From: Candidatus Omnitrophota bacterium
GTDB lineage: Bacteria > Omnitrophota > Gorgyraeia > Gygaellales > Profunditerraquicolaceae
DNA length: 64,000 nucleotides
NCBI GenBank assembly: GCA_018822885.1
Contig: JAHJJA010000149.1
Span: forward strand, 771 to 64,770
Direction of reading: 5' to 3'
The notes below the pieces were generated by a model that worked only from the letters and a program-made list of their open reading frames with translations, ran no database searches and was not told the DNA's origin. Of this stretch, positions 23,251-63,679 are shown piece by piece (the first letter of the stretch is position 1; each line of letters begins with the position of its first letter). A program made the translations under genes and the position numbers.

Positions 23251-23260
23251 AGTTTCACCT

Positions 23261-35502: not shown

Positions 35503-35503
35503 T

Positions 35504-35752
35504 TTAGACCGCCTTCTTTTCTAAATATTCCTTGGCCACTCTGACTGTATCGCTTAAGGTAGTTAATTGAGTAAGTTTTTCTTCAGGAATGACGATCTTA
35601 TATTTCTTTTCAACCGCAGTGAGGATCTCAAGAGCCATCATAGAATCCACTCCCAGCTCTTCAAAAAACTTTGCTTCAGGTGTTATCTCACTCGGCTCCT
35701 TTTCAATGATCTCCGCAATAAGCCCTCTTATTTCGTTTTCAACATTTTCCAT
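35504..35752 (-). CDS. Dedicated acyl carrier protein (second ACP in the window).
   Basis: LGVDSMMALEIL attachment motif. 82 aa. Confidence 0.8.
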   Translation of the reverse strand: MENVENEIRGLIAEIIEKEPSEITPEAKFFEELGVDSMMALEILTAVEKKYKIVIPEEKLTQLTTLSDTVRVAKEYLEKKAV

Positions 35753-35765
35753 AGTATCCTCTCTC

Positions 35766-35790
35766 TAAAAAAGGGGACGTTTCTATTTTT
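35766..35790. repeat. Copy of the AAAAGGGGACGTTTCTATTT motif (R2 family) in the spacer between the KR gene and the ACP gene.
   Basis: Identical 20-mer at 33760..33779. Inverted near-copy at 33850..33869. Related GGGACGTTTTC at 41572..41582. Confidence 0.4.
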
Positions 35791-35804
35791 CCCCTTTTCC
35801 CCTA

Positions 35805-47702: not shown

Positions 47703-50492
47703 CTAACTGCTGCGCAACACTTTCTTTAAATACTGCCCCGTATAAGAACTGCCCATCTTCACTATCTCCTCCGGAGAACCGCATGCGACGATCTCTCCGC
47801 CCCTATCGCCCCCCTCCGGACCGAGGTCTATGATATAATCGCAACATTTGATCACTTCAAGGTTATGCTCAATTACTATGACAGTATTGCCTTTTTCAAC
47901 CAGCCTTTCTAAAACAGAAACGAGCTTCGCCACATCCGCAAAATGTAAACCCGTAGTCGGTTCATCCAGAATATACATGGTATTTCCTGTAGCACGCTTA
48001 CTTAACTCCGAAGAAAGCTTTACTCTCTGTGCCTCGCCTCCGGAAAGGGTTGTCGCGGCCTGCCCTAATTGAATATAGCCCAGGCCCACGTCATAAAGGT
48101 AAGTCATGGTATTTTTAATACGAGGTATATTCTCAAATAGTCCAAGCGCCTCTTCAACCGTCATTTCTAAAACATCGGCGATCGAATTTCCCTTATATTT
48201 TACCTCTAGCGTAGAGGAATTAAACCTAAGGCCTTTACAAACATCGCACTTCACATAGACATCGGCGAGAAAATGCATTTCAATCTTTTTTATACCGTCA
48301 CCGGAGCAGGCCTCGCACCGCCCGCCTTTTACATTGAATGAGAACCTTCCGGGGCGATACCCGCGCTGTTTTGACTCCGGCAGCTGACTAAAAATATCCC
48401 TGATCTGGCTAAAAACCCCTGTGTATGTCGCCGGATTTGAGCGGGGCGTCCTTCCTATGGGAGACTGATCCACTACGATGACTTTATCAACATGTTCTAT
48501 CCCTTTTATCCCCTTGAATTTTCCGGGCTTTTCCTTTGATTTATACAACTTCTGGGCAAGTGCACGATAAAGCACCTCATCTATAAGGGTTGATTTCCCT
48601 GAACCAGAAACTCCGGTAATACAAATAAATTTTCCCAAAGGAAACTTTACATCAATATTCTTTAGGTTGTGTTCAGCTGCCCCCTTTACCTCTAAAACCC
48701 TTTTTTCCTTTTGCCGCTGCCTGCTTTGTACGGGTACATTGATGCTTAGCTCCTGCCTAAGATACTTAGCAGTTAAAGAATCTTTAGATTTTAATAATTC
48801 TCCCCTGTCCCCGGCAAATACCACTTCTCCGCCATGCCTGCCTGCCCCCGGGCCTAAATCTACGATGTAATCAGCGGCCAGGATTGTCGCTTCATCATGC
48901 TCTACCACAATCAAGGTATTACCCAGATCCCTTAGAGCTTTTAAAGTGGCCAGAAGCTTGTCGTTATCCTTTTGATGCAAGCCGATGCTCGGCTCATCAA
49001 GGATATAAAGCACACCCACTAAGCCGGAACCCACCTGCGTTGCAAGGCGGATCCTCTGTGCCTCGCCTCCGGAAAGAGTGGCGCTTCTTCTGTCTAAAGT
49101 AAGATAATCCAGCCCTACATCAACGCAGAACTGCAATTTCTGGATGATCTCTTTTAATGCCTGATGCGCGATCAGCTTCTGGCGTTGGGTCAGCTCCAGC
49201 GATTTAAAGAAACGATGTGCCTCTTTGATTGATAGCTGCGTGACATCCCAGATATTCTTTGCGTTTATTTTTACGGCTAAGCTCTCCTTCTTAAGCCTGG
49301 CACCCTTGCAGACAGGGCAAGGCAAGCTCGACATAAACCTGGAGATCTCTTCTTTAAGATAATCGCTCTTTGTTTCCCGGAACAATCTCTCAAGATGCGG
49401 GATAAGCCCCTCAAAAGGTTTACTGCCGACGATCTGCTCTGTTCCGTAGAGGACAGCGCTTCTAACATCTCTACTTAACTGCTTAAAAGGAGCATCCAGA
49501 TCAAAACGTAACTTATGGGCAAGCTCCCTGATCAACCACCTGTAATATAGGATATAACCCCTGCCGCCTCTCTTCCATGCCTCGATCGCCCCTCCATTAA
49601 TAGACTTATTCTTATCAGGGATAATCAAATCGGCATCAAATTCAAGCTTAGTGCCCAAGCCATTGCATTCAGGACAGGCCCCATAAGGAGAATTAAAGGA
49701 AAAGTTGCGCGGTTCTACCTCCGAATAACTTATGCCGCACTTCGCGCAGGCATACTGCTCGCTAAAAATCAGATCTTGTGGCTTTGCAACTAAAACAATC
49801 CCCTTACCGACCTTTAACGCTGTCTCTACAGAATCAGTCAAACGCTTCTTCACTTCTGATTTGACAATAAGCCTGTCAACGACAACTTCTATGTTATGTA
49901 TCTTATATTTTGCCAATTTTATCTTTACAGGCAACTCATGAATTACACCATCGACGCGAGCGCGCACAAAACCTGATTTCTGAATCGAGCTAAATATATC
50001 CCGGTATTCTCCTTTTCTCCCCCTAACTATAGGAGCCAAAATCTGGATTTCAGTGCCTGCGGGAAGATCCATGATCCGTTCAATTATCTCTTGAGAGCTC
50101 TGCCGTTCTATAGGCTCACCACACTGATAACAATACACCTTGCCGATACGCGCAAACAAAATCCTTAAGTAATCGTAGATCTCGGTTTGCGTGGCAACTG
50201 TTGAACGGGGATTTCCCCCGGCAGTGCGCTGTTCTATTGCGATCGCAGGAGAAAGCCCCTCGATATACTCGACATCGGGTTTTTGCAGCTGCTCTAAAAA
50301 CTGGCGGGCGTAGCTCGAAAGCGAATCCAGGTACCTGCGCTGGCCTTCAGCGTAAATGGTATCAAAGGCAAGGCTAGATTTGCCTGAACCGGAAAGCCCA
50401 GTAACCACTATCAGCTTATTCCTTGGCAGCTTAAGATTAATATTCTTTAGATTATGTTCTTTTGCCCCGCGTATAATTATAAAGTCATCCAT
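47703..50492 (-). CDS. uvrA: Excinuclease ABC subunit UvrA.
   Basis: Two ABC ATPase modules with zinc fingers. N-terminal [23 protein letters not shown]. Confidence 0.95.
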
Positions 50493-50495
50493 ATT

Positions 50496-51716
50496 CTATT
50501 TTCCTCTTTTTAAAAACCATAGCAAAAATACAAAGATGCTGCCCATTATATTAGCGAACAGCCAACTTAAAGCCATTCCTTTTCCTCCGAAACTGGGCAA
50601 AAGAATAAAACCCAATATCGTTAATAGCGCGAGCACAAAACCGGCAAACAGCGCCACTCTCCCGTTCTGCTTCTTAATATTTAAAGTTGTGATATATATT
50701 TGATTGAAAACAAAGAAAAATATGGAAGAAAATAGTAAGCGCAAAGTCAGGAAAGAATGTTCTGAGAAATCTTTTTTAAATAAAAATAATATCTTATCCC
50801 CTAAGATGAAAAAGGCAAGAAAACCGAAGATGCTCAAAATGAAGCTAAAGGTTACGGCTTTCTTTAAAAGCAGAGGATGATCCTCTCCGTGAGAGGCCTT
50901 CATCAAGAAAACATTATTCACAGAACTGATGAAACTACAGTAAACAGAAAACATCATCCAAGGGATATAAAATAATCCGGCCTCTTTTTCTGAAAATAAA
51001 GAGAGTATCGCCAGGGGGGCGATCATCCCGGGTAAGCTTAATGTCAAGGCATTTAGAAAATTAACCAGGGAAAATGGTAATACCCTCTTGAGTATTGCCG
51101 GATCGAAACCCCATTTTATTTTTAAATCTTTATATTTCAGCAAAAGATAACCGGCGGATAAGACAACGGCTACAATCGCTGAAAGGCAATTGGAGGAGAA
51201 TATCCCGAAACCCCCTAAAGCAGTTAAAATAAACAAAAAAACTATCCTTAAGGTATATTGCGTTGCATTCTTCGCCAGGACTAGGCGCGTTCTTTGCAAT
51301 GAAACAAAAACGCTGTCTAAGATCTGAAAGGTCTGCATAGAAAGGACAAAAATTATAAACAATAGTGAATTCCAGGGATTATTTAAGATCCTGACCTTTG
51401 GCAGAAGGATGCCTTTCGCCGATAAAAATATCATGACAAAAATAATCAAGAGCCCCTGGGAAAACCCGAATAATGTGCCTACCAGCTTTCCCTTGTCTTT
51501 ATCAATAGGCATAAACCTGATAAAACTGGGCAACACTCCCAAAGAAGAAATAAAAATCAGGAATGAAGCCAGTGAAATCAAAACAGAACCCAAACCGACC
51601 CCCTCAACGGTATATAATCGCGCGGCAATAACCCAAAATAGCACCCCGGAAACCGCCAAAATCCCCTGAGAGAGTATAAGATCGAAAGAATGCGAAAAAA
51701 AACTTTTCTTAATCAT
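50496..51716 (-). CDS. Wzx-like polysaccharide/oligosaccharide flippase (MOP superfamily).
   Basis: 406 aa, about 12 TM segments, polysaccharide-biosynthesis-protein-like N-terminus. Confidence 0.6.
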   Translation of the reverse strand: MIKKSFFSHSFDLILSQGILAVSGVLFWVIAARLYTVEGVGLGSVLISLASFLIFISSLGVLPSFIRFMPIDKDKGKLVGTLFGFSQGLLIIFVMIFLSAKGILLPKVRILNNPWNSLLFIIFVLSMQTFQILDSVFVSLQRTRLVLAKNATQYTLRIVFLFILTALGGFGIFSSNCLSAIVAVVLSAGYLLLKYKDLKIKWGFDPAILKRVLPFSLVNFLNALTLSLPGMIAPLAILSLFSEKEAGLFYIPWMMFSVYCSFISSVNNVFLMKASHGEDHPLLLKKAVTFSFILSIFGFLAFFILGDKILFLFKKDFSEHSFLTLRLLFSSIFFFVFNQIYITTLNIKKQNGRVALFAGFVLALLTILGFILLPSFGGKGMALSWLFANIMGSIFVFLLWFLKRGK

Positions 51717-52684
51717 CTTTTTAAACTGTATATAACGGCTCTGGCTTTCTTTAAAAATGCTAAAGGAAGAAAAGTAGCCAGATAAAAAAGGCTTATCCCA
51801 AGATTATCCGGAGTAATCCCGGCTGCCCTCTTCAGAAAAATTCTCGCCTCCGGCATCCTCCCTTGTCCGCATAACGCCCTGCCCCAATTATAATAATAAC
51901 ATGCCAAAGCAACCCGCCTATCCTTAGCGGTAGGCTGCCTTGTCCTGCCTATCAACTTTATCCCTGACATCAACGGTTCCTGTTTTTCGCGGCTCCTGGC
52001 TTTCGCGCATTCACGCGCCAGCTCTACATACTTATCCTGGCTTAACTTCTTATCAATTGAAATTGACGAAGGGTCAAACCGCCACTTATAAAAAAAACCC
52101 TCCAGGTTAGCAACATCATAGCTTTCCGCTATCCTTAAATATAAATCGTAATCCTGGGCATAACGGAATTCCTCCCTGTAACCGTGAACTTTATCAATAC
52201 ATTCCTTTCTAAACATTACCGAACCGTGGCAAAACTGATTATTCAAATATAGTTCCCTACGCAGCCTCGCCATATCAGTTTCATACCTGAAATCAACTAT
52301 CTTATTTCCGGCTTCATCAATCTGCACCACAGAACTGCCCACCAAACCGACATCCGGATGCTTATCGAGAAAACCGGCCTGTTCCCTTAGCCTGTCCGGC
52401 ATAGAAATATCATCCCCATCCATGCGCGCGATATACCTGCCCTCAGCCAGGCCCAAGCCGATATTCAAAGACTTTGTCAACCCCAGATTCTGAGGGTTAT
52501 TAATCACCCTCATCCGTGAGTCATTATAACTCTGCAGTATAGTTCCCGAATTATCCGTAGAAGCGTCATTAATAATTATCAGCTCAAAATCGCTAAAGCT
52601 CTGGTTTAAGATACTGCCTATAGCCTCATGAAGATATTTTTCTTCATTATGAATCGCCGTTAAAACCGAAACAGTTACCGGCAT
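51713..52684 (-). CDS. Glycosyltransferase family 2.
   Basis: VSVLTAIHNEEKYL ... DASTD ... DGDD motifs. Start set at the internal ATG (the ORF-track N-terminal extension overlaps the upstream gene). Confidence 0.75.
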   Translation of the reverse strand: MPVTVSVLTAIHNEEKYLHEAIGSILNQSFSDFELIIINDASTDNSGTILQSYNDSRMRVINNPQNLGLTKSLNIGLGLAEGRYIARMDGDDISMPDRLREQAGFLDKHPDVGLVGSSVVQIDEAGNKIVDFRYETDMARLRRELYLNNQFCHGSVMFRKECIDKVHGYREEFRYAQDYDLYLRIAESYDVANLEGFFYKWRFDPSSISIDKKLSQDKYVELARECAKARSREKQEPLMSGIKLIGRTRQPTAKDRRVALACYYYNWGRALCGQGRMPEARIFLKRAAGITPDNLGISLFYLATFLPLAFLKKARAVIYSLKR

Positions 52685-53463
52685 CTTAAAAAGCCTTTCA
52701 GTATAAGAGAGGCGGACGAAAATAAAAAACGCGCCCCCTCTAAAAGCCTCATCTTCTTTATGAGTACCTTCCCCCATAAAAAATAACTGCTAATTTTTCC
52801 TTTTATAAAGTTTCTCTCATTATCGCTTATGTATTCCTCGATTATTTGCAGATGCCTGTCGGCTATGCTTTCTTTAGACTTACCGCATAAGAACAGAAAA
52901 TACGGACAGGCCCTGCTATAAATTTCGAATATTCTTACGGCAGGGAAAATGCCCGCGAGTGTTCTATGCAGATCTTCTCTCGTGTACATGCAGTAATGAA
53001 ATTTATTCCATTCCAGAAAAACAGGGATCAAACTGTCTTCAGCTACTAACGGAGTAGTCCCGATTATCAGGCCTTCTTGGGAGCAAACGCGTTTTATTTC
53101 CGAAAGATAAGTTAACCCATCCGCTCTTTTAAAATGCTCAATGGCATCCAGGCTTAAGACGATATTAAACGTATCGGCGTCAAATTTCAAGCTCCTGCCA
53201 TCCATGACAAGAAACTCATAATTATCTGACTTACCGTAATCTTTCATGGCTGATTCGCACAAATCAACCCCGACGGTAAATTTAGCGACTGGCGCGATAA
53301 GATTTACAGTGCCGAATCCGGTACCGCAGCAGGAATCCAAAACAACCTTGTTTTCCGTAAACAAAGACGCTAAATAATACCTCTCCTTCAGAAGGTCAGC
53401 CCATTTAGTGGACTTCCATTCTTCGCTATCAGGATCTATCCTTCCGGAATAATTTTTGCTCAT
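52675..53463 (-). CDS. Class I SAM-dependent methyltransferase.
   Basis: VLDSCCGTGFGT motif I. ATGA overlap with the radical SAM gene. Confidence 0.65.
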   Translation of the reverse strand: MSKNYSGRIDPDSEEWKSTKWADLLKERYYLASLFTENKVVLDSCCGTGFGTVNLIAPVAKFTVGVDLCESAMKDYGKSDNYEFLVMDGRSLKFDADTFNIVLSLDAIEHFKRADGLTYLSEIKRVCSQEGLIIGTTPLVAEDSLIPVFLEWNKFHYCMYTREDLHRTLAGIFPAVRIFEIYSRACPYFLFLCGKSKESIADRHLQIIEEYISDNERNFIKGKISSYFLWGKVLIKKMRLLEGARFLFSSASLILKGFLRCR

Positions 53464-54584
53464 TTGCCTGGCCTTTCGATTCTTAGTATTCTTCGTAAAA
53501 ACCACCACAAAACAAATGGGGGATTATTGCAAATGCTAGGATAAATCTCGCTATCCCCGCATAATCCGTTTGGATACATACATTCGCCTCTGGCTATTTC
53601 ACCCGCGACCTTTTTGGAGAATGACTCCCAAATCGTATCAAAATCATTCTTCCTAAGATTGCCCATAATCCTATCATCCGTAAGCTTGAAATTACAGGGG
53701 TATACATCGCCATTAGGAGCTACGTGAACTATCTGGCTGCCCGCGTAACAAGGCATCAGGCGCCGATGAATTATATTATCATAGAGGCAATCATGGGTTG
53801 TTTTTGAATCCAGACCTAACAAGCCTCTTATTTTATCAAAGATTGTCTGCGGATTAGGGGGGATACTCTCAACATACTTTCGAAAAATCTCAACCATAGC
53901 AGGTTTCCAAAAAACCAAGTCCTCATCCTCGACATTAAACCGCGAATTCATAACAGTCCAGCAGATATAAGCCCTTGTTCCTTTTTCCCGCGCGAAATTG
54001 CACACCCACTCGAAATAATCGGCATTATGCCGGCAGAAAGTAAAACTGAATTCACAATGGACTATATTTTTCAGCCTTTCATAAGTTTCTACCGCTTTTT
54101 GCCAACTACCGGGCATGCCGCGAGTAAAGTCGTGAATTTCCGGAGGGCCGTTCAGGCTTATGCCTACCAAAGAAAAATTTATGCCCGGGTTATCCTTAAC
54201 GATCTTTCTAAATAAGTTCTCTTCGAGTTGCGGGTTCAATCCGTTAGTGGTTATCTGGAACCTCGCTTTCGGGAGATTCTTATGCAGTACAGAAACAATC
54301 TCCGGCAAATCAGCCCTTAGCGTCGGCTCGCCACCGCTGAAAGTGACATATTCAGTATTGCGAAAATACCTGGACCTGCTAAACCTATCGATCTCTTCTA
54401 CGGATAAGTCATTTATACCGGCTTCGGGAATCTTCCAGATCGAGCATGTAACGCATTTTGAATTACACTTCCATGTAGTAGTAAGCCTTAAACCCATAAT
54501 ATCGCTGCGGGACTTAAACATGTAAACAAGCCATCTCGAATATTTCTTCCTAAGAGTATTAAACCCGTAAGAAAGCTTACTCAT
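53460..54584 (-). CDS. Radical SAM protein with a Cys-rich C-terminal (SPASM/twitch-like) extension.
   Basis: CNSKCVTC is a CX3CX2C motif. C-terminal Cys clusters PCYAGS...YPCNF and GECMYPNGLCGD...SIC. Confidence 0.7.
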   Translation of the reverse strand: MSKLSYGFNTLRKKYSRWLVYMFKSRSDIMGLRLTTTWKCNSKCVTCSIWKIPEAGINDLSVEEIDRFSRSRYFRNTEYVTFSGGEPTLRADLPEIVSVLHKNLPKARFQITTNGLNPQLEENLFRKIVKDNPGINFSLVGISLNGPPEIHDFTRGMPGSWQKAVETYERLKNIVHCEFSFTFCRHNADYFEWVCNFAREKGTRAYICWTVMNSRFNVEDEDLVFWKPAMVEIFRKYVESIPPNPQTIFDKIRGLLGLDSKTTHDCLYDNIIHRRLMPCYAGSQIVHVAPNGDVYPCNFKLTDDRIMGNLRKNDFDTIWESFSKKVAGEIARGECMYPNGLCGDSEIYPSICNNPPFVLWWFLRRILRIERPGK

Positions 54585-54635
54585 TCTGCCTCCTGATTAA
54601 AAGCCGGTTTATGCTGATACCAACCTCTTGCCCGA

Positions 54636-55475
54636 CTAACGCGCCTGGTTGCCCTTTAAATAAGTTTTGCCAGTCAGGGTTTTGCCGTACTTTCTTTCTA
54701 AATAAATAAATACCGGAACAGGCAAAGAGCATGCGATGAAACTTCGTAAAGTAGAAAATAAATTGGTTAAACAAAAAAACACTGCGAGGTATCTGGCTTT
54801 TACCCTGAATCTATCCCAAGCCCTCTTCCTAAGGTCCTTTATAGACATCCCTATCCGGCGCTCCATAATAGAAGTCAGGAATTCCTGCAGATTGCGGATC
54901 TTAAAGCCGCCGCGGATTGCCCTGGCCCATAATTCATAATCTTCCGCGTTGCTATATCGGCGATCGTATCCCTTCAATGTATCAAAAAGCTCTTTCTTTA
55001 TCAAAACCGCCGGATGGACGATGCCGTTTCTTTGATACAAGACTTTAGAATCGACCGCAATAGGAGTAACCCACTCAGCCACTATCCTGCTTTCCGGATC
55101 AATAACATACGCCCAGCTGCCAAGAATATAAACATCCTTATGGCTCTCCATGTATTCAAACTGCTTTTGAAAGCGGTCCGGAGTTGCGGTATCGCCAGAA
55201 TCAATCCTGGCGATGTATTTACCTTTAGCAAAACTAATACCCTTATTAAGCGCGCCGATCAATCCCAAAGAAAACTCATTATGAATAATCCTTACCCTCG
55301 CATCAAGAGCGGCGTATTCTGCCAGAAGCTTCCCGGTGTTGTCAGTAGAACCATCGTTAACAACTATAAGCTCAAAGTCAGAAAATGTTTGGGTTAATAA
55401 GCTATCGAAAGTCGCCTTGAGATATTTCTCTTCATTATGTGCCGGTAAAATTACGCTTATTAGGGGATTGCTCAC
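54636..55475 (-). CDS. Glycosyltransferase family 2.
   Basis: ISVILPAHNEEKYL ... DGSTD ... DSGD motifs. Confidence 0.8.
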   Translation of the reverse strand: MSNPLISVILPAHNEEKYLKATFDSLLTQTFSDFELIVVNDGSTDNTGKLLAEYAALDARVRIIHNEFSLGLIGALNKGISFAKGKYIARIDSGDTATPDRFQKQFEYMESHKDVYILGSWAYVIDPESRIVAEWVTPIAVDSKVLYQRNGIVHPAVLIKKELFDTLKGYDRRYSNAEDYELWARAIRGGFKIRNLQEFLTSIMERRIGMSIKDLRKRAWDRFRVKARYLAVFFCLTNLFSTLRSFIACSLPVPVFIYLERKYGKTLTGKTYLKGNQAR

Positions 55476-56590
55476 TTTATTGCCTCAATATATTCCTTCT
55501 CTATAATATCCGCCTGTTTCTGCCAGGTATACTTTTCTAATACGAGCCTGTAACCATTCTCCCCCATTACGCCTGCTTTTTCCTTATTTATCAAAATAGA
55601 CTCTAAAGCCGAAGCTAAATCAGAAATATCCCTGCTCTTTACCACTATGCCTGCGTTATGACTTTTTATCTCTTCCGCGGTCCCTATGACCTCTGTAACG
55701 ATCACCGGCTTTTTGCAAGCCATTGCTTCCACAGCTACTAGCCCGAACCCCTCCTGGACTGATGAAACCGAAGGCAGGACAAAGCAATCGCAAAGATTAT
55801 AGAATCTGACCAGCTCTTCATCGCTTAAGAAACCTAAAAAGTCAACCGATCCCTCTAGACCATGCTCTTTTACAAATGCCTTATAGAAACCAAGCAGCTC
55901 CCCTTGCCCTCCCACATAAAGCTTAATCGGAATCTTTGATTTAAGCTCTTTTACAGCCGATAGAAGATATTCTAATCCTTTATAGCGGTGAAAATTATCC
56001 AGTTTTGCCATAAAGAAAACGCGGGGGGCCTCTTCTTTTTCTACAGGGATCGGCTTAAATTTCTCTAAATCCACTCCCAAAGGCAGAAAAACCACCTTTT
56101 CACTAAACTTCTTCAAAAACGGCGAGCTTTCGATATAATTTTTATTTATAATAAATATCTTTCTGGCTGTTTTCAGTAATCCGGGCAAGAAAACACGATT
56201 ATAACAACCGGCGATAAACTGGTTGATCCCCGAACCGGTGATATCATTGCAATATGTGAGGAATAGAGGCTTCTTCTTTATTCTTGATGCGATAGCGCTT
56301 ATATCCGCGCTCCAGGGATGCGGTAAATAGGTATGCAGGAGATCAAAATCCTGCTTTAATATTTCACTAAGCAATGCCGGGGTGATATTGGTATTGGCTA
56401 CTTTTGCTACATAATCGAGCCTTTTCACGTTTACCCCGGACACATTAGGGGCGCAAGCGCGCGGTTCATTAGCGCAAATGACGCTTACGGCATGCCCCCT
56501 ATTCACCAGCTCCTTGCCAAGATATAATGCTACCTGCTCTGTGCCTCCGATATAAGGATAAAAACGTACTGGCGTCTGAAGTATTTTCAT
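55472..56590 (-). CDS. Glycosyltransferase family 1 (GT4-type).
   Basis: GT-B fold with a C-terminal E-x7-E-like EGFGLVAVEAMA motif. Confidence 0.8.
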   Translation of the reverse strand: MKILQTPVRFYPYIGGTEQVALYLGKELVNRGHAVSVICANEPRACAPNVSGVNVKRLDYVAKVANTNITPALLSEILKQDFDLLHTYLPHPWSADISAIASRIKKKPLFLTYCNDITGSGINQFIAGCYNRVFLPGLLKTARKIFIINKNYIESSPFLKKFSEKVVFLPLGVDLEKFKPIPVEKEEAPRVFFMAKLDNFHRYKGLEYLLSAVKELKSKIPIKLYVGGQGELLGFYKAFVKEHGLEGSVDFLGFLSDEELVRFYNLCDCFVLPSVSSVQEGFGLVAVEAMACKKPVIVTEVIGTAEEIKSHNAGIVVKSRDISDLASALESILINKEKAGVMGENGYRLVLEKYTWQKQADIIEKEYIEAIK

Positions 56591-56594
56591 TGTC

Positions 56595-57530
56595 TTATGT
56601 TTTCGGCATAAACGCCTTATAAAAACCTAAGTGCCATGAGATGATCCCTTTCAAGGCAAGGCCTAAAGCAGTCAGTTTAAAATTAAAGTAAAATAATAAG
56701 GATATGAAACAAAGAAAAACGAGTATCCCAGTTAAAAACAGTTTATATATCAATAACCCCAGGATAAAAACTAAGACTAAGGGAATTATAATAGGCACGG
56801 CCTGGATCTTTCGAAAGATGCCATATTTCTTCACCAGAAACCCCTGCGCCCAGCCATATCTGTCCATCATTCTTAAGAAAGATGCTGTATCTTGCGGTTT
56901 ATAGTGGTAGACTAGAGCCTTTGGGTTAAAGACTATCCTGTATCCTCTTTTCTTCAGGCGAAAATCAAACTCCACATCTTCTCCCGGCCACAATTCCTCC
57001 AAAAAACCCCCCTCTTGCCGAAACGCCTCCTTTTTATACATCACATTGCATGTAGGATTGTGGTCTACGGATAATATCCCCTCTCCGGATTTACGTAAAT
57101 AATCAGAGATAAACCCGATTTTTTTCATCGCCAGGTATACCTTCTTTCCAAAATCAGTTTCATCGGCAGGGACATCCTGCGAGCCTCCGCAAGAAATGAC
57201 GCCATCCAGGGCAAATCCAGCCAGCAACTCTTTGAGCCAGTTCTTATCCACGATACAATCTGCGTCGGTAAAAGCAAAAAACTCTCCCCTCGCCTTGAAT
57301 ACCCCGACATTTCTTGAAAATGATGGCCCCCTAGCAACAGGATTAGTGATTATATTTATTTTTGGAAGATATTTACTTAAAATAACCGGAGTCTCATCTT
57401 GAGAAAAATCATCAATGATTATTATTTCATAATTATCGTAGTCTAAGACCAGCAAAGAATCCAGACACCTGGCTAGTGTCTTCTCTGCATTCTTGGCGGG
57501 GATAATAATACTTACCAGAGGATTACTCAT
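56595..57530 (-). CDS. Glycosyltransferase family 2 with C-terminal TM helices.
   Basis: VSIIIPAKNAEK ... DDFSQD ... DAD motifs, plus a hydrophobic C-terminal 60 aa. Confidence 0.75.
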   Translation of the reverse strand: MSNPLVSIIIPAKNAEKTLARCLDSLLVLDYDNYEIIIIDDFSQDETPVILSKYLPKINIITNPVARGPSFSRNVGVFKARGEFFAFTDADCIVDKNWLKELLAGFALDGVISCGGSQDVPADETDFGKKVYLAMKKIGFISDYLRKSGEGILSVDHNPTCNVMYKKEAFRQEGGFLEELWPGEDVEFDFRLKKRGYRIVFNPKALVYHYKPQDTASFLRMMDRYGWAQGFLVKKYGIFRKIQAVPIIIPLVLVFILGLLIYKLFLTGILVFLCFISLLFYFNFKLTALGLALKGIISWHLGFYKAFMPKT

Positions 57531-58960
57531 TTCTTAAGAAGGTATGATATAAAGTTAGACGCCCCTCTAATTTTGCGATAAAGATCTGACATAGAACGGG
57601 TACTAAACAGAAACTTCATCATGTAAGATGGCCTGAAATAAAATCTCTTAAGCCCAAGGTCCACAAAATAATTTATACGCTGCAAGGAAAGTCCCGGATA
57701 CTCTATAACCCCTGCCTGCTCTCCGGTATCAAGCCAATCGCTCCACTTCTCTGACTTTAACCAACCCTGATCTTTGCATAAATCAAAAAATCTTGTGCCC
57801 GGAAAAGGCACGGCACCTGAAAACTGCACCGTGGTCAATCCAAGACTTAAAGCAAAATCAATAGTTTCCTTTGCCGTTTCTTCAGTTTCACCGGGAAGGC
57901 CAAACACAAAACACCCATGCACCTCTAAGCCGGCCTCTCTTGCTAAACGCATAAACCTCCTGGACCCTTCTAAGGTAATATTCTTATTCATCTTGTTTAA
58001 GACATCCTGATTTCCTGACTCAAAACCAACGAGCAATTCCCTGCACCCGGATCCTTTCATTATCTTAAATAGCCCTATATCGGCAGTATCAACCCGCGCG
58101 TTGACAGAGAATGTTATTTTTAAATTCCTGCGCTTTATCTCTCTGCAGATCTCAATCGCCCTTTCTTTATCCACTGTAAAGGTATCATCCTCAAAGAAAA
58201 ACTCTCCGCCCTTTAAGACCTGCGGGCATAATTTAATATCATATTCGATCTCATCAACCACATTCTTCGGGCTTCTTAAACGGTAACGCATCCCATGCAT
58301 CACTTGAGGCCAAAGACAGAATATGCAGCGGTTAGGACAGCCCCTTCCTGAGATTATATCTATGTAGGGATAAAGCTTGCCTCCGTCAAAATACTTCATC
58401 AGGTCCAATTGATGCCAAGCCGGAAACGGCAATCCATCCAGATTCTCAATATAGGGCCTGGCGGCATTCACCATGATTTGTCCGTCCTTATAATAAGCGA
58501 TCCCCTTAACGCTGGCTAGATCATTAAAATTTTCTACCGCGTCTCTTACGGAGTAATCGTATTCTCCGATACAGGCGATATCCACCGCGCCTTTTGCCAA
58601 AATCAAGGTCTCTTCGGGCAAGCTAGAAACGTGCGGGCCGACCATGATGACTTTAGCCCCGGATTCTTCTTTGACTATTCTAGCGCATTCAATATCAGAA
58701 TAAATCGAAGGCGTAGTAGAATCTAAAACCACAAAATCCGGATTTTCTTTCCTGATAATAAGGCGCAGGTCATCTTTGGTCTGCCCCTTAGCAACCATAT
58801 CTAAAAGGATGGCTTTGTGGCCTGCCTTTTCCAATACCGTAGCAGAATAAGCCAGCCAATCAGGAGCACGCAAAACCCTTCCGCGGGTGCGCGCGGCCCA
58901 TCTCTGCGTCCGGCAGAAATCTTTGACAAAAGGCTCATTAATCAATAATATCTTAGGCAT
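57527..58960 (-). CDS. B12-binding-domain radical SAM enzyme (class B radical SAM, methyltransferase-like).
   Basis: N-terminal B12-binding-like region, CPNRCIFC (CX3CX2C). 477 aa. Confidence 0.75.
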   Translation of the reverse strand: MPKILLINEPFVKDFCRTQRWAARTRGRVLRAPDWLAYSATVLEKAGHKAILLDMVAKGQTKDDLRLIIRKENPDFVVLDSTTPSIYSDIECARIVKEESGAKVIMVGPHVSSLPEETLILAKGAVDIACIGEYDYSVRDAVENFNDLASVKGIAYYKDGQIMVNAARPYIENLDGLPFPAWHQLDLMKYFDGGKLYPYIDIISGRGCPNRCIFCLWPQVMHGMRYRLRSPKNVVDEIEYDIKLCPQVLKGGEFFFEDDTFTVDKERAIEICREIKRRNLKITFSVNARVDTADIGLFKIMKGSGCRELLVGFESGNQDVLNKMNKNITLEGSRRFMRLAREAGLEVHGCFVFGLPGETEETAKETIDFALSLGLTTVQFSGAVPFPGTRFFDLCKDQGWLKSEKWSDWLDTGEQAGVIEYPGLSLQRINYFVDLGLKRFYFRPSYMMKFLFSTRSMSDLYRKIRGASNFISYLLKK

Positions 58961-58974
58961 TATTCCTTCACGGG

Positions 58975-59643
58975 CTATATTTTGCTTGCGACAATAAGCA
59001 TCTGCCTTCCCATTATCTTCCAGATAAAAGGAAACCTTAAATACATCCGCACCGCAAAATCATTTTTGGGGATCCTGCTTTTAGTGGTAAAGGGGAGGAA
59101 TTTGGGAATGGCGCGTTCGATTTTAAAACCGATGGCCTGCAACAGCTCGGCCAAAGCCTTATGGCTTAAAGGAATAAAATGATCAAAAAAATCCCAGTAT
59201 TCCTTATAGACATACCTGATGTTGGGCCCCATAAGGATTATACGCCCCTTTGGTTTCAAAACACGCAAAGCCTCCAGAAGCGTCTTTACAACCTCTTTTT
59301 TATCCAAGAGGTGCTCTGAGAAATTACTCATAAAGACAGCGTCTACGGAGCCGTCTTTTAAAAAGTTGAGGTCGCAGGCATGGCTGTTAAATAACTTTAC
59401 ATCGGGATCAAAGAATTGCCGTGATTCTTCATTAAGTTCAACGGCAAACTTCTGGCGGCACTTAATATGATTGATAAATTCCCCGTAACCGGCTCCCACA
59501 TCAAGAACAACATCATCTTTACCGATGAACTGTTGAAAAAAATCTTGGCAAAATATTTCCCAAAGATGGTTCCTTACCGCAAGTTCATCTTTATTAAAAC
59601 GGACCTGATAGAGCTTTCCTAGAATATTGTCAAATGTATCCAT
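58975..59643 (-). CDS. Class I SAM-dependent methyltransferase.
   Basis: VLDVGAGYGEF motif I. 222 aa. Confidence 0.65.
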   Translation of the reverse strand: MDTFDNILGKLYQVRFNKDELAVRNHLWEIFCQDFFQQFIGKDDVVLDVGAGYGEFINHIKCRQKFAVELNEESRQFFDPDVKLFNSHACDLNFLKDGSVDAVFMSNFSEHLLDKKEVVKTLLEALRVLKPKGRIILMGPNIRYVYKEYWDFFDHFIPLSHKALAELLQAIGFKIERAIPKFLPFTTKSRIPKNDFAVRMYLRFPFIWKIMGRQMLIVASKI

Positions 59644-59659
59644 GTCGGTTCCTTAAGGA

Positions 59660-60820
59660 TCATTTTTTCTCTAGAAATAAGAGGCTGACAAAAAATGATG
59701 AAAAAATAGTCTGTATTCCGATAACCAATAAAGTTGTCGCCAATATCGCTTCCCTTATCCTGTATAGCGCGCCAAAACCGCTTGAAAACCAGTCGATGAA
59801 TATAAAGGTGATGATGATCAGAGACATCAACACCAATAAGCCTCCTAAGCCCAAGCCCCTCTCAAGGCTGAAATGGCGCTGAAAGAACAGAGTCGTCTGG
59901 TCATATTTCAGGAACCCCTGTCTTATGGCAAAACTATGGGCAAAAACTCCCAGGCCTAAGACCTGATAAGATAATATGCTTATGGCGCTGGCGAAGGTCA
60001 TTAAATGCACATCCCAGCGATGACCAAAAAATAAAAACGGCCCCTTTAATAAAAGAAGCATCACCCCGAAACCAAGAATAAAGCCGACTAGCCCGGGAAT
60101 AAAATACAGCCAAAGCGGACAATATAGCAGCATAAATCTCATGTGACGCCAGGCGTCAAAAAAAGGATTTAATTTAGACTCTCCTTTGCGCGGATGATAA
60201 TGGATGGGAATCTCGCAAGTCTTTAAATCATTCTGCAGAGCAGCCACGACCATCTCGGTAGCAAACTCCATCCCTATTGTCCTTAATTTCATTTTTTGAT
60301 AAGCCTCGAGGCTGAATCCCCGCATACCGCAATGAATATCAGAAAGTTTGGTGCGGAAAAATACCCTTGTCATGCCGGAAAGTATGGGATTGCCTATGTA
60401 GCGGTTCATCCAGGGCATGGCCTTCTTTTGGATCTTTCCCTTAAACCTAGAGCCCATGACAAAATCATTGCCCTCTCTTAAGGCTTTTAAGAATTTCGGA
60501 ATATCATAAAAGTCATAAGTCAGGTCGCTATCAGCCATGACTACGTATTTTCCGGACACCTCTCTGAAACCACGCAGATAAGCTGAACCGTAGCCGCGTT
60601 TATGCTCTATTACGACCTTAGCTCCTTCATTTTTAGCTATTTCTATTGAGCGGTCAGTCGAGCCGTTATCAGCTACGATTATCTCTCCCCTGATCCCCTC
60701 TTTAGCAAAAACTTCTTTTACTCTCTTAACACAGACCCCTATCGCCTCCTCCTCATTCAAGCAAGGCAGGACTACCGACAACTCGATCAAGCTACCCCCT
60801 GTTTCCATGACTACTCCCAT
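59660..60820 (-). CDS. GT2 polyprenol-phosphate glycosyltransferase (Dol-P-Man/Glc-synthase-like) with a C-terminal 4-TM domain. Possibly starts at Met5, 60808.
   Basis: LSVVLPCLNEEE ... ADNGSTD ... DSD motifs and a C-terminal hydrophobic domain. 386 aa. Confidence 0.7.
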   Translation of the reverse strand: MGVVMETGGSLIELSVVLPCLNEEEAIGVCVKRVKEVFAKEGIRGEIIVADNGSTDRSIEIAKNEGAKVVIEHKRGYGSAYLRGFREVSGKYVVMADSDLTYDFYDIPKFLKALREGNDFVMGSRFKGKIQKKAMPWMNRYIGNPILSGMTRVFFRTKLSDIHCGMRGFSLEAYQKMKLRTIGMEFATEMVVAALQNDLKTCEIPIHYHPRKGESKLNPFFDAWRHMRFMLLYCPLWLYFIPGLVGFILGFGVMLLLLKGPFLFFGHRWDVHLMTFASAISILSYQVLGLGVFAHSFAIRQGFLKYDQTTLFFQRHFSLERGLGLGGLLVLMSLIIITFIFIDWFSSGFGALYRIREAILATTLLVIGIQTIFSSFFVSLLFLEKK

Positions 60821-63387
60821 AAGATCCGATAAACCTTAATGTAATCCTCTTCATCATTCTCGGTTATAAATGGCTTAAAATGCTTTAGGCCCTCGCCATT
60901 CAGGAAATACAGCCGCACATACAAACTCTCGGCCAACTCCGGGTCAAGTAAAATCGCCTGCAATTTATTATCTTTTCGGAATATCAGAACAGAAAAGTCT
61001 AAATCACTTTTCTCATAAACAAACTCCTTCATCTTGCCGTCCTCAAAAAGAAAAAGGCTCTTAGGCACTTTATATTTCTTGTCATGACAGGAGTATTGAT
61101 TTACTGTCTGCTGTTTAGGATTATAGACTAACCCTCCCTCAAAAAGGAGTACTTCTTCATTTTTCTCTTCTGTATGCAGCCTACCCCAGAATGAGAGCCT
61201 CTTTGAGACTATCTTATCAAGATTCTTCTTTGAAAGAATAGACGCCTCTCTTAAAAATCCTTCCGCCTCCTCTTTATTCTGGCCGTTAGAAACAAGATAA
61301 TTGATCATTGAGCTGCTATCAATTTTGCCTAGATTCCTAGTGATATAAACCTTGGCGAAATCCCAGTTTCCTATATAAGAAATAGCGCCCATTATATTCT
61401 GCATGGATGTGTAAACAATAAAATAAGCTTGCTCCTTAGGCATGTCAAACATCAAACCCTCGACTTTTATCGCCTCATCGAGAGGAAGATACTTTGACAG
61501 CAGCGTTTGCGCCTCTTTTGGATCAGAAGAAATAAGCCTTTTGATAATCAAGATCGAAAGGAACGGATCCTTTATCCTACCATTAATAATATTAAAAGCG
61601 CTGTTGGCGCCGTTATTTAACATCTTAAGGATCTTTATTGCTTCCTCTTCGTTGTGGCTGATTAGCACCTTAGCCATCCAATAAGCCTGCGGCGTGTTCT
61701 GACTCTGGCCGTCAAAGATTACCCGGCGATTACCAACAGTTTTAAACCAATCCCCCAGATCCCACCAGGAATTTACAATTGCATCGTTAGGCGTGTTTTT
61801 CTTTATATTAGTCAAAACGTTATACCAGGAATCAGTCATATAAGGATAAAGGCCTTTCGCGGAATCATAAGCGTTATTGACAAATACCGCGCCAAGCAGT
61901 ATTGCCCCTAATGCGACAATATAAGCCAAGACCTTTCTTCCGTTTTGCTCGAGTAAAAGTAAAAGTTCGCTGATTCCCCCCCCTAAAAATATCCCTAAAG
62001 GCACAAGTAAGAATACAGCGAAACGTATTCCGCTAAAACAGGCAAAGAACATCGCCGCGAACCAGAAAAAGAAAAGGACCAATGCTTCATATTTACTGCC
62101 ATAAGTCTTTTTTATAAAAAAGTTCAGTAAAATTAAGATGATCAGACAAACCAAACAAATAACAAATAGATATATCCCGCCGGCATAAACAGCTATCTCG
62201 GCAAAGTCCGGCCTCCTTAATTCGTTTACCGTGGAAAAAACATTGGGCCAAATAGAATCGACCAAAGGCTTAGTCAAAAGCAGGGCATTTGTTACTTGTG
62301 AGTACAATATAATGAAGGGCTTTGTACCGCAGAAAAGCATAACCCAGCATAGCGAGAAAGCTATAAATAAAGGCAGAATCAGAGCATGCGCTTTAAAAGG
62401 CCTGCTGATGTCCTCCTTGTATTGCATCTTTATTGAAAGCAGATTAAGCATGGAAAAAACCGCGTAAGTTATCAGGATAATAAAAATAAACCACCAGTTT
62501 CCCCAGGTAAAAGCAAATAAACCTATCCAAAAAGAAGCCAGGCAAGTAAAGAATATCCTTCGTTTAAGATTATTCACGTTTAAGGCGGCCAAATACCCCC
62601 AAGCCGCCAATAACGGAAAGAGCAAATTCAAAACATCGGTATCAAACCAGCCTCCGCAGCTGCGGGAAATAAATATCGGGCATAAACCCACAAAAAGAGT
62701 CGACAGCAACGCGGCCACGCTGCCCCAATAAAAAAAACAGAATAAAAACAAAACGGTAAGAAAAATAATCACAAATAAAAGCGGAAGGTAAAACAGGAAG
62801 GTATTAAGGGCAACAGGCTTAAAAATGCAGAATGTTCTATATAAAAAAGCGGATAAATAATAAAGGAGGTTATTAGAAGGCAGATTTTTGCCCAGAGGAG
62901 CAAGCGCAAAAAGGTCGCGCTCTCTGCCGTCTTTTTGCTCGTCTCCGGGATGCCCGTACCTTAAAACATTTTCAACGTACCTTGCCCAATTCCAGCAATC
63001 AAGCTCCATTAAGTAGGACTGGCCGCTTGCGTCCTGATATTTACTCTTTAGCCTGCTAAACTCTTCTTTGACCTTGGCCTTGATCTCATGACTTTTTTCT
63101 TTTTTTACCTCTGCTGTGCGCAATTCAACAAACTTATCCTTGGCAGGCGCGCTTAGTTTACCGGGTAGTTTATCAAACTCATCATCAACCTGTTTAGCTA
63201 TCTCCTTCTCAATGTTTGCTTTTGCCAAAGGCTTAAGCTGCCATAGATAAGCGGGAAAAAGCCTAAAATACAGATTTAAAAATATAACTAGAATTAAGGC
63301 AAATATCGGTAAAACTAATTTAGCTGTCTTATTAGGCATAATAGCATGATTATACCCGCACCTTTTACTTGGCCTTGGATTTTCCAA
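60811..63387 (-). CDS. STT3/AglB/PglB-family oligosaccharyltransferase-like membrane protein (putative).
   Basis: A polytopic N-terminal half of about 500 aa is followed by SWWDLGDW (compare the STT3 WWDYG motif) and a soluble C-terminal domain of about 300 aa. The first-loop motif ELDCWNWARY resembles the eukaryotic STT3 EFDPYFNYR motif. Confidence 0.55.
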   Translation of the reverse strand: MENPRPSKRCGYNHAIMPNKTAKLVLPIFALILVIFLNLYFRLFPAYLWQLKPLAKANIEKEIAKQVDDEFDKLPGKLSAPAKDKFVELRTAEVKKEKSHEIKAKVKEEFSRLKSKYQDASGQSYLMELDCWNWARYVENVLRYGHPGDEQKDGRERDLFALAPLGKNLPSNNLLYYLSAFLYRTFCIFKPVALNTFLFYLPLLFVIIFLTVLFLFCFFYWGSVAALLSTLFVGLCPIFISRSCGGWFDTDVLNLLFPLLAAWGYLAALNVNNLKRRIFFTCLASFWIGLFAFTWGNWWFIFIILITYAVFSMLNLLSIKMQYKEDISRPFKAHALILPLFIAFSLCWVMLFCGTKPFIILYSQVTNALLLTKPLVDSIWPNVFSTVNELRRPDFAEIAVYAGGIYLFVICLVCLIILILLNFFIKKTYGSKYEALVLFFFWFAAMFFACFSGIRFAVFLLVPLGIFLGGGISELLLLLEQNGRKVLAYIVALGAILLGAVFVNNAYDSAKGLYPYMTDSWYNVLTNIKKNTPNDAIVNSWWDLGDWFKTVGNRRVIFDGQSQNTPQAYWMAKVLISHNEEEAIKILKMLNNGANSAFNIINGRIKDPFLSILIIKRLISSDPKEAQTLLSKYLPLDEAIKVEGLMFDMPKEQAYFIVYTSMQNIMGAISYIGNWDFAKVYITRNLGKIDSSSMINYLVSNGQNKEEAEGFLREASILSKKNLDKIVSKRLSFWGRLHTEEKNEEVLLFEGGLVYNPKQQTVNQYSCHDKKYKVPKSLFLFEDGKMKEFVYEKSDLDFSVLIFRKDNKLQAILLDPELAESLYVRLYFLNGEGLKHFKPFITENDEEDYIKVYRILWE

Positions 63388-63436: not shown

Positions 63437-63679
63437 TTATCTCTTCTTCTTTTTCTTGCCGCCTCTTTTCATCTTGGCGCAGGAAACATCCCCTGCCTTA
63501 TCCAAGAAATAAAGGTAACCTTCTTTTCTCTTGATACCGCACTTGGCTACCTTTTTCGGATTACCGCCTTTTTTGTTGCCTCTTGCCATCTTTGCGCAAG
63601 AAACATCACCCTGCTTGTCAATATAATAGAGGTAACCCTTTTCTCTTTTTACGCCCAGCTTTACGATTTTTTCCGCCAT
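63437..63679 (-). CDS. Small, highly basic protein made of two tandem repeats of about 38 aa each.
   Basis: KLGVKREKGYLYYIDKQGDVSCAKMARGNKKGG and KCGIKRKEGYLYFLDKAGDVSCAKMKRGGKKKKKR. Confidence 0.45.
   Translation of the reverse strand: MAEKIVKLGVKREKGYLYYIDKQGDVSCAKMARGNKKGGNPKKVAKCGIKRKEGYLYFLDKAGDVSCAKMKRGGKKKKKR

Follow-up and report, generated by a model that had tools for sequence, protein, structure and literature searches.

Two radical SAM cassettes in an Omnitrophota operon with a probable role in STT3-type N-glycosylation

A 64,000-nucleotide stretch of a Candidatus Omnitrophota bacterium contig (JAHJJA010000149.1, positions 771 to 64,770; henceforth the window) carries on its minus strand a run of 11 genes (50496-63387), in which glycosyltransferases, a flippase-like protein and an STT3-family oligosaccharyltransferase (OST) are combined with two radical S-adenosylmethionine (SAM) enzymes and two SAM-dependent methyltransferases. 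Nine of these genes, packed between 50496 and 59643, had been described in an earlier sequence-only reading of the DNA, and we found all nine in place in the list of open reading frames (ORFs), with domains supported by hidden Markov models (HMMs). The run extends upstream through two further genes, one for a polyprenol-phosphate glycosyltransferase and one for the OST, as that reading had also proposed. Domains were assigned by matching Pfam and NCBIfam HMM profiles to the ORF translations, and coordinates are those of mechanically delimited ORFs except where corrected below. We propose that this operon probably assembles a polyprenol-linked oligosaccharide for STT3-type N-glycosylation, and that two independent cassettes, both with a radical SAM enzyme of their own, have come together in it.

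In the direction of transcription, the first gene (60811-63387) encodes the STT3-family protein, an 858 amino acid (aa) transferase of the GT-C type with matches to PF02516 (98 bits) and PF21436. It is followed by a family 2 glycosyltransferase (GT2) of the AglJ/Dpm1-like polyprenol-phosphate kind with a C-terminal transmembrane bundle (59660-60820; NCBIfam AglJ, 164.6 bits), by a class I SAM methyltransferase, MT2 (58975-59643; PF08241, 47 bits), and by an HpnJ-like radical SAM enzyme with a B12-binding domain (57527-58960; PF02310, 45.8 bits, and PF04055, 81.3 bits). Next come GT2tm, a membrane-anchored GT2 with a hydrophobic C-terminus (56595-57530; PF00535, 117.6 bits, and PF13632, 46 bits), a family 4 glycosyltransferase, GT4 (55472-56590; PF00534, 133 bits), and GT2b, an EpsE/TuaG-like GT2 (54636-55475; PF00535, 130 bits; NCBIfam EpsE, 124 bits, below cutoff). 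The last four genes encode a 374-aa radical SAM enzyme whose C-terminal domain is of a partial SPASM/twitch type (53460-54584; PF04055, 66.5 bits, and PF13186), a 262-aa class I SAM methyltransferase, MT1 (52675-53463; PF13649 and PF08241), GT2a, a 323-aa EpsE-like GT2 with a TPR-like tail (51713-52684; PF00535, 117 bits), and a Wzx-like lipid-linked oligosaccharide flippase (50496-51716), which is hydrophobic throughout and matches PF01943 marginally (30.1 bits against a cutoff of 28.2). The AglJ-like GT2, the B12-domain enzyme and GT2tm constitute what we term cassette A, to which GT4 is a semi-conserved addition and MT2 a variable accessory gene; GT2b is likewise variable, and the SPASM enzyme, MT1 and GT2a constitute cassette B.

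All 11 genes are joined by overlaps of 4-10 nt (4 nt at 57527-57530, 55472-55475 and 51713-51716; 10 nt at 60811-60820) or by gaps of at most 51 nt, and these short gaps, together with the ATGA overlaps, indicate a single operon, as the earlier reading had held. The mechanical starts are too long in two ORFs, as a public contig of identical sequence (L094; loci are labeled here by L numbers) shows by its independently called genes. Those calls start MT1 at 53463, so that it again overlaps the SPASM gene by ATGA, and GT2a at 52684, in place of the mechanical ORFs 52675-53508 and 51713-52777. The TTG start of the STT3 gene at 63387 is also mechanical, and an ATG at 63339 (MPNKTAKL...) is likelier. 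A promoter and terminator scan for the limits of the operon gave counts close to the shuffled expectation. Downstream, 3 nt separate the stop codon of the Wzx-like gene from the start of uvrA (47703-50492, minus strand), no convincing terminator was seen there, and the glycan transcription unit may read through into this DNA-repair gene.

The STT3 protein retains the WWDLG motif at residues 541-545. When 21 of its homologues, taken from related loci, were aligned, D130, D249-x-D251, E389 (in TVNE), W541-W542-D543-x-G545, K549 and D559 proved to be at least 95% conserved. From their positions, and not from a structure alignment, we take D130 to be the aspartate of external loop 1, D249/D251 the DxD motif, E389 the glutamate of external loop 5 and K549/D559 the DK-type region. 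Judged by these intact catalytic motifs, the protein is a genuine OST. It is a divergent one: it scores 31 bits against the archaeal STT3 equivalog, whose cutoff is 450, and a phmmer search of PDB sequences recovered eukaryotic STT3 only, and weakly, with the PglB and AglB chains missing E 0.01.

The gene following the OST similarly falls within a known class while missing the family cutoff. AglJ (TIGR04182) is its best NCBIfam family, with the 164.6 bits given above against a cutoff of 325, followed by the dolichyl-phosphate hexose transferase (108 bits), PpgS (67 bits) and ArnC (64 bits) models; its homologues carry the PF26629 GT2_TM_C domain. We found no PglC/WecA-type initiator among the locus genes, in the flanks or among the 30 other window ORFs scanned (a scan that covered neither ORFs below 150 aa nor five larger minus-strand ORFs), and this is consistent with AglJ-type initiation on polyprenol monophosphate. 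Bacillosamine genes were likewise not seen among the locus genes or those 30 ORFs.

Taken together, these features recall the archaeal Agl pathway (AglJ, AglB, AglP, AglR), with which the locus shares an AglJ-like GT2 with a C-terminal transmembrane bundle, an STT3/AglB-type OST with WWDxG and DK-type motifs, a Wzx/AglR-like flippase, SAM methyltransferases and the lack of a visible PglC/WecA-type initiator. It differs from that pathway in its bacterial host, evident from the uvrA and exbBD neighbors and from the Omnitrophota metagenome-assembled genome (MAG) to which it belongs, and in missing the equivalog cutoffs. We know of no characterized Agl pathway that contains a radical SAM enzyme, and the review of archaeal N-glycosylation that we searched makes no mention of radical enzymes. 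The Campylobacter pgl system (PglB) also couples cytoplasmic glycosyltransferases, a flippase and an STT3-family OST in a bacterial operon; unlike it, the window locus has radical SAM genes and has neither a PglC-type phosphoglycosyltransferase nor genes for di-N-acetylbacillosamine. Proteins 100% identical to the SPASM enzyme and 99% identical, over a part, to the B12-domain enzyme come from Candidatus Omnitrophica MAGs.

To delineate cassette A we scanned one genome per species for relatives of the B12-domain enzyme, obtaining 167, and examined the loci of the best 80, all from MAGs, both by tblastn with the proteins of the window and by clustering every ORF of these loci de novo; ORF calling was crude, and the counts of AglJ-like and GT2tm neighbors given below are underestimates. 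Besides the partial self copy, the best 120 database matches of the enzyme, from several phyla, are 71-79% identical to it over the full length, and the best 80 of the 167 relatives are 65-77% identical. The hosts of these 80 include Omnitrophota, Elusimicrobiota/Endomicrobia, Margulisiibacteriota, Planctomycetia, Caldiserica and Sumerlaeota, and further Edwardsbacteria, Nitrospirota, Desulfomonilaceae, Syntrophobacteraceae and Fibrobacterota, among others. Cassette A is hence spread over more than 10 mostly uncultured bacterial phyla, with the radical SAM enzyme 65-79% identical throughout. An AglJ-like GT2 (42-70% identity) lies at most two genes from the B12-enzyme gene in 54 of the 64 loci with enough flank, as does GT2tm (38-56% identity) in 46 of the 64; GT2tm immediately follows the B12-enzyme gene in most loci, and in the window the pair overlaps by ATGA.

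Cassette A normally adjoins a gene for a GT-C enzyme, which is an STT3 orthologue (28-46% identity, upstream of the cassette) in 22 relatives. In 15 loci it is a PMT_2-like GT-C enzyme, often encoded between the AglJ-like and B12-enzyme genes, in three loci a second PMT-like family, and in seven an LA_3751-like polytopic protein. GT4 tends to accompany STT3: orthologues of 52-55% identity are present in five STT3-bearing loci (L010, L042, L056, L059 and L068), and the GT4 cluster comprises eight loci, all with STT3 except L074. The remaining operon genes are another matter. MT1, MT2, GT2a, GT2b, the Wzx-like gene and the SPASM gene almost never occur near a B12-enzyme gene, some being shared only by L030 and L040. 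MT2 has an orthologue in one of the 80 related loci (L040, 38% identity), its position being taken by the PMT_2 GT-C gene in many Omnitrophota relatives; GT2b has a close orthologue only in L030 (49% identity), and the Wzx-like protein has one there as well, also at 49% identity.

The frequent PMT_2-type neighbors bear on a different account of cassette A, namely that it makes a modified polyprenol-phosphate monosaccharide for a periplasmic GT-C enzyme, in the manner of ArnC/ArnT, GtrB/GtrC or AglD/AglS-like pairs, with the STT3 oligosaccharide of the window being started by an enzyme whose gene lies elsewhere. PMT_2-type enzymes use such donors, and their genes lie between or beside the AglJ-like and B12-enzyme genes in at least 25 loci; moreover, several phyla have cassette A without STT3, and PpgS and ArnC are further proteins to which the AglJ-like GT2 bears a likeness. 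However, the window itself lacks a PMT_2-type gene, STT3 being the sole GT-C enzyme found in the locus, GT2tm and GT4 after the B12-enzyme gene suggest elongation on the same carrier, and the window ORFs that were scanned gave no other initiating enzyme. We regard this account as rather unlikely.

Several observations on the related loci were made along the way. In the lineages lacking STT3, large polytopic proteins adjoin cassette A (L046 13459-15672, 737 aa with about 13 transmembrane segments; L054 6494-8497, of a cluster also found in L049, L052, L064, L077 and L084, 667-678 aa with about 10 segments). They have no Pfam match or only weak PMT or LA_3751-family ones, and are probably unclassified GT-C transferases. 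Many relatives carry, downstream of cassette A and among glycosyltransferase genes, up to three (at least one) more distantly related paralogues of the B12-domain radical SAM enzyme (25-37% identity) as well as more radical SAM genes (L004/L008, L009, L011, L012, L025, L031, L035, L045 and others), with L004 having a second copy of a similar set of B12-domain radical SAM, GT2 and radical SAM genes. Two contigs (L002 and L003) are binned as Candidatus Aenigmatarchaeota, with BacA, ScpA, DUF1844 and an Alg13/14-like glycosyltransferase as neighbors that resemble those of Omnitrophota loci; these copies of cassette A are probably binning errors. An archaeal origin was not counted from them, as the contig looks bacterial by its BacA and DUF1844 neighbors.

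The B12-domain enzyme itself has a Rossmann-type N-terminal B12-binding domain (residues 35-137, 45.8 bits against the PF02310 cutoff of 32.1) and a CxxxCxxC motif, C208-x3-C212-x2-C215, that is invariant in 20 homologues. By far its best NCBIfam family is HpnJ (TIGR03471; 390.6 bits, cutoff 577.6 unreached), followed by BchE (165 bits), the ladderane-lipid enzyme (129), PhpK (128), AprD4 (110) and HpnR (91); the 25 best families shown do not include HpnP. Its identity to annotated HpnJ is about 35% over the full length (34.3-35.7% by tblastn; 37% in a MAFFT alignment). A search of a representative library placed the clade inside a very large HpnJ-like radiation of 8232 clusters at E<=1e-30, in which the nearest non-self relative is 49% identical. 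The AlphaFold model (pLDDT, the model's confidence measure, 79) has as its best PDB neighbor AprD4, the radical SAM 1,2-diol dehydratase of apramycin biosynthesis, with a template modeling (TM) score of 0.73-0.77; the next full-length fold matches are TsrM, MgmA, OxsB, CysS and TokK, so that the search retrieves non-methylases and methylases alike. AprD4 (PDB 6FD2) is also the best match among solved structures by sequence (95 bits) and acts on a sugar carbon, as we suppose the window enzyme to do. It differs in being only 22-24% identical, with the match covering mainly the radical SAM core (residues 168-403 of the window enzyme), in relying on a reductase partner, in acting on a soluble aminoglycoside and in being free of cobalamin despite possessing a B12-type domain (PMC12931638). 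Housekeeping radical SAM enzymes were set aside: for both radical SAM proteins HemN/HemW, MoaA and NirJ/Ahb gave only weak, partial matches, and the conservation of both families with glycosyltransferases in relatives argues against such an identity and equally against their being casual neighbors, two possibilities that the earlier reading had raised against itself.

The reaction catalyzed by this enzyme is a more delicate question. The earlier reading reasoned from its class B (B12-binding) membership to C-methylation. This holds up weakly, given that the few cobalamin radical SAM enzymes counted as non-methylating include HpnJ, BchE and the ladderane enzyme (bioRxiv 10.64898/2026.04.29.721654) and that the best structural match is a dehydratase. 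For HpnJ, the proposal, based solely on genetics, is a contraction of the glucosamine ring in a lipid-linked sugar (PMC13459092, PMC9204698). We tentatively favor an HpnJ/BchE-type non-methylating rearrangement or ring-forming reaction; cobalamin-dependent C-methylation is possible but not favored, and some other chemistry, such as an AprD4-like dehydration, appears unlikely.

If the enzyme were a canonical class B methylase comparable to GenK, MoeK5 or Fom3, the operon would yield, with its two further methyltransferases, an N-glycan heavily methylated on both C and O. The majority of characterized class B enzymes are indeed methylases (PMC9204698, PMC12931638); a similarity network drawn at high stringency groups HpnJ with Fom3 and with MoeK5, which C-methylates a sugar within a lipid-linked saccharide (PMC9204698). 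The PhpK score points the same way, and methylation would leave the anomeric center intact and the product still transferable. Against this stand the non-methylating nature of the top three curated families (HpnJ, BchE and ladderane), the low rank of HpnR, the absence of HpnP from the 25 best families and the dehydratase as best solved structure. Also, the neighboring MT2 is not conserved with the B12-domain enzyme. The argument is limited by the finding of a 2026 review that neither sequence nor structure separates methylases from non-methylases (PMC12931638), so that there is no sequence feature by which the two could be told apart. On balance the methylase account has a fair share of precedent on its side, yet we think it the less probable outcome for this family.

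The resemblance to HpnJ raises yet another alternative, in which GT2tm and the B12-domain enzyme act as HpnI and HpnJ do, a lipid being glycosylated and its sugar ring then contracted to a cyclitol, to yield a glycolipid headgroup. The homology to HpnJ extends over the full length, in true hopanoid loci hpnJ adjoins the GT2 gene hpnI, and in nearly all cassette A loci the B12-enzyme gene adjoins and overlaps the GT2 gene. GT2tm further has a weak match to Glyco_transf_21, a family that includes ceramide glucosyltransferase. But GT2tm is not specifically HpnI-like (E 0.089), and HpnI is absent from its NCBIfam matches, the best of which is MftF at a sub-cutoff 142 bits. An HpnK-type deacetylase, squalene-hopene cyclase and other hopanoid genes were not seen in the window or the loci, and the tight link to a polyprenol-phosphate GT2 and GT-C enzymes would be left unexplained. 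We consider such a glycolipid route improbable. The wider comparison gives the same picture: like HpnJ, whose proposed substrate is a lipid-linked amino-sugar, the enzyme joins a B12-like N-terminal domain to a radical SAM core and is encoded next to a membrane GT2. However, the true locus reads hpnI-hpnJ-hpnK, whereas the window and the 80 relatives have an AglJ-like GT2 and a GT2 unrelated to HpnI, the window has no HpnK deacetylase or hopanoid genes, the conserved neighbors being instead a polyprenol-phosphate GT2 and GT-C enzymes, and the family stands apart as a tight clade, identity being at least 65% between phyla but about 35% to HpnJ. A true HpnJ/HpnI system was rejected on these grounds, namely the sub-cutoff score, the unrelated GT2 and the missing hopanoid context. 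Returning to the reading we prefer, the locus works like an archaeal Agl-type pathway in a bacterium, and is neither a pgl-type nor an Hpn system.

An HpnJ-like enzyme outside this clade is encoded on plasmid 1 of the pig pathogen Lawsonia intracellularis, a cultured organism (L090, NC_008012.1 7085-26515; 38% identity, 376 bits to the HpnJ model). In this 27-kb plasmid the HpnJ-like gene is followed by genes for a class I methyltransferase, a second radical SAM enzyme and four more methyltransferases, and the cluster, which is likewise uncharacterized, also contains GT2 genes, galE and genes for DUF2304, a HAD hydrolase, a GHMP kinase and a DUF2142 membrane protein. Unlike the window, it has a B12-domain enzyme of a different clade and no annotated AglJ-like GT2 or STT3; its second radical SAM enzyme was considered as an orthologue of the window SPASM protein and rejected, the two being unrelated by comparison.

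Cassette B has a distribution of its own. The SPASM family, with 147 members at E<=1e-10, is much smaller than that of the B12-domain enzyme, for which 2980 hits were scored, and is found in Omnitrophota, Marinimicrobia, Acidobacteria, Planctomycetota and the Loki- and Hodarchaeota. Each of the six other genomic contexts of the SPASM gene that we examined is a glycan locus, and four of them (L087, L092, L093 and an ENA contig) repeat the gene order of a radical SAM enzyme, then a class I methyltransferase, then a GT2. A Polysacc_synt flippase lies beside the cassette in L087, L089 and L092, with the radical SAM gene of L089 adjoining Wzx and GT2 genes, while in L093 and the ENA contig cassette B stands beside genes for a Wzm/Wzt-type ABC transporter with Wzy_C proteins. 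Orthologues of GT2a (38-43% identity) occur in the L087, L089, L092 and L093 contexts, and MT1 is 43% identical to its counterpart in L092 and 28% to that in L093. Neither STT3 nor the B12-domain enzyme is encoded in any of the six, which indicates that the window joins two independent cassettes. Synteny in relatives, which the earlier reading had named as a check on the gene set, is therefore found for each cassette separately, the nine genes first described not being one co-inherited set.

The C-terminal domain of the SPASM enzyme matches PF13186 at residues 279-321 with 37.2 bits, above the gathering score of 21.5. Its conserved cysteines, as seen in 27 homologues, are C40/C44/C47 of the CxxxCxxC motif and, beyond these, C208, C279, C297, C335 and C342 only. 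The seven-cysteine motif for two auxiliary [4Fe-4S] clusters is thus incomplete, CX2CX5CX3C being absent, and by this count the conserved cysteines would suffice for about one auxiliary cluster; the earlier description of Cys-rich C-terminal clusters was overstated. The structural model (pLDDT 87) finds generic SPASM/twitch enzymes as its PDB neighbors, matching CteB, MoaA, BlsE, anSME, DesII and BtrN about equally (TM-scores 0.45-0.66), with SuiB and AbmM also similar, and no close characterized relative emerged from these comparisons. Among carbohydrate enzymes, BtrN, BlsE, DesII and SpeY share with it the fold class, about one auxiliary cluster of the twitch kind and the carbohydrate context, BlsE having the best TM-score to the model (0.59/0.66). 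They differ in that identity is at most 20%, with no family-level match, and in that the known examples belong to antibiotic pathways, where they modify soluble nucleotide- or aminocyclitol-sugars, and not to envelope glycan operons.

SPASM enzymes commonly act on peptides or carry out anaerobic oxidations, and the earlier reading had suggested the protein substrate as an alternative target of this one. It would then be a peptide or protein maturase, working for instance on the glycoprotein acceptor in the manner of sactisynthases or anSME (anaerobic sulfatase-maturating enzyme). Its best sequence and fold matches do include CteB, anSME, SuiB and SkfB, and several NCBIfam peptide maturases score 50-58 bits. 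But these matches are generic, far below cutoff and at TM-scores of 0.5-0.6, with the sugar-acting BlsE, DesII, BtrN and AbmM matching equally. The conserved cysteines, sufficient for about one auxiliary cluster only, speak against a maturase as well, and the six other contexts are glycan loci, usually with a methyltransferase and then a GT2 downstream. Gaps of at most 51 nt leave no ORF space in the operon for a precursor-peptide gene, none was called beside the enzyme in the six contexts, and no RiPP (ribosomally synthesized and post-translationally modified peptide) recognition element was found. The suggestion thus lacks support; we rejected a RiPP maturase role, the peptide gene being absent and the glycan context consistent, and rank action on a peptide or protein as the least likely of the accounts considered.

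A model for the operon can be drawn from these lines of evidence. The AglJ-like enzyme would load a sugar onto polyprenol phosphate at the cytoplasmic face, and the B12-domain enzyme would abstract hydrogen from an unactivated carbon, either in this lipid-linked sugar or in the intermediate that follows, and remodel it. GT2tm, GT4 and GT2b would then extend the chain, and cassette B would add and tailor a further sugar, by radical oxidation, epimerization or deoxygenation followed by O-methylation. The product would be flipped by the Wzx-like protein and the oligosaccharide passed by STT3 to asparagines of envelope proteins. The substrate of radical chemistry in the operon would accordingly be a lipid-linked sugar, as the conserved partner enzymes suggest, and the acceptor a protein asparagine. 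Thus, surface sugars of this uncultured bacterium are probably modified by hitherto uncharacterized radical chemistry.

Several points weigh against this model. The occurrence of cassette A without a recognizable STT3 in Elusimicrobia, Sumerlaeota and Deltaproteobacteria means that its primary role is not necessarily N-glycosylation. The AglJ-like GT2, being below cutoff, could supply a polyprenol-phosphate monosaccharide to a periplasmic GT-C enzyme and not initiate an oligosaccharide, and the assignment of the flippase is marginal. Since the top structural match, AprD4, does without cobalamin, the B12 dependence of the window enzyme is unproven. An HpnJ-type contraction of a phosphate-linked sugar would destroy the glycosyl-phosphate bond that transferases need, and hence such chemistry would have to act on a non-reducing residue or give an end-product lipid. 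Finally, the model is drawn, for both radical SAM families, from homology and synteny.

The relatives provide a hint as to possible acceptors. In seven of about 23 STT3-bearing relatives (L010, L013, L014, L017, L040, L085 and L086) genes for type IV pilin-like proteins with an N-terminal KGFTLxE signal lie immediately upstream of STT3 on the same strand; L033 and L054 also have such pilin-like genes. In L085 these are preceded further upstream by genes for a secretin and for the E and F components of a type II secretion system; in L086 the E gene is not visible and the F gene is cut by the contig end. The density of N-x-S/T sequons is 1.80 per 100 aa in the pilin-like ORFs as against 0.39 per 100 aa in all ORFs of the loci. 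By analogy with archaeal pilins and archaellins, the pilin-like proteins of these relatives are possible OST acceptors.

The general type of system, polyprenol-linked glycan assembly with an OST, is known; its radical SAM partners here are dedicated, widely conserved and uncharacterized. Our literature searches on radical SAM enzymes with OST, Omnitrophica, polysaccharide/O-antigen, C-methyl or HpnJ found no description of cassette A or B. To our knowledge, radical SAM chemistry on a lipid-linked intermediate has not been shown for protein N-glycosylation or for polyprenol-linked glycan assembly. The B12-domain enzyme offers a sharply defined target for enzymology: it is 65-79% identical across phyla, is encoded almost always between a polyprenol-phosphate GT2 and a membrane GT2, and its partner enzymes point to polyprenol-phosphate sugars as the likely substrate class. 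Since HpnJ itself is not known to have been reconstituted, this family could also decide which reaction HpnJ-type enzymes catalyze. OSTs of the STT3 type, complete and with their catalytic motifs intact, are encoded beside an archaeal-type AglJ-like gene in Omnitrophota, Margulisiibacteriota, Planctomycetia and Fibrobacterota, which is relevant to how N-glycosylation is distributed and has evolved beyond Campylobacterota and Desulfovibrio. Cassette B represents a second uncharacterized sugar-tailoring unit, common to bacteria and Asgard archaea. A more far-reaching proposal, which we advance as a long shot, is that the HpnJ-like enzyme performs a radical ring contraction or another rearrangement of the carbon skeleton on a polyprenol-linked or nascent glycan sugar, and that cassette A is an ancient module feeding GT-C enzymes. 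If this were true, at least 10 largely uncultured, mostly anaerobic phyla would display carbocyclic (cyclitol-type) or skeleton-rearranged sugars on N-glycoproteins or envelope glycoconjugates, with archaeal/eukaryote-like STT3, possibly acting on type IV pilins, among the GT-C clients.

The remainder of the window is given over to housekeeping functions, with uvrA, exbBD, pgi, recG, dus, leuBCD, pgk, glgC and genes for fatty-acid synthesis, a GH57 protein, electron transfer flavoprotein and acyl-CoA dehydrogenase. Just upstream of the STT3 gene lies an ORF for a very basic 80-aa protein (63437-63679, minus strand), whose sole match is a weak, sub-threshold one to DotY. It consists of two near-identical halves of the form K-x-G-[VI]-KR-[EK]-[KE]-GYLY-x-[IL]-DK-x-GDVSCAKM followed by a Lys/Gly-rich tail, and its ATG is preceded by a ribosome-binding-site-like GGGGG. 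A 718-aa ORF at 31600-33756 (plus strand), with no Pfam match at E<=1e-5, runs opposite to nearly all other window genes. Nearby, 33880-37549 (minus strand) encodes a complete beta-ketoacyl synthase, a short-chain dehydrogenase/reductase and a protein with the ketoacyl-synthase N-domain only; this set is distinct from the plsX-fabH-fabD-fabG-fabF cluster at 20903-26147 and may serve a separate acyl-chain pathway.

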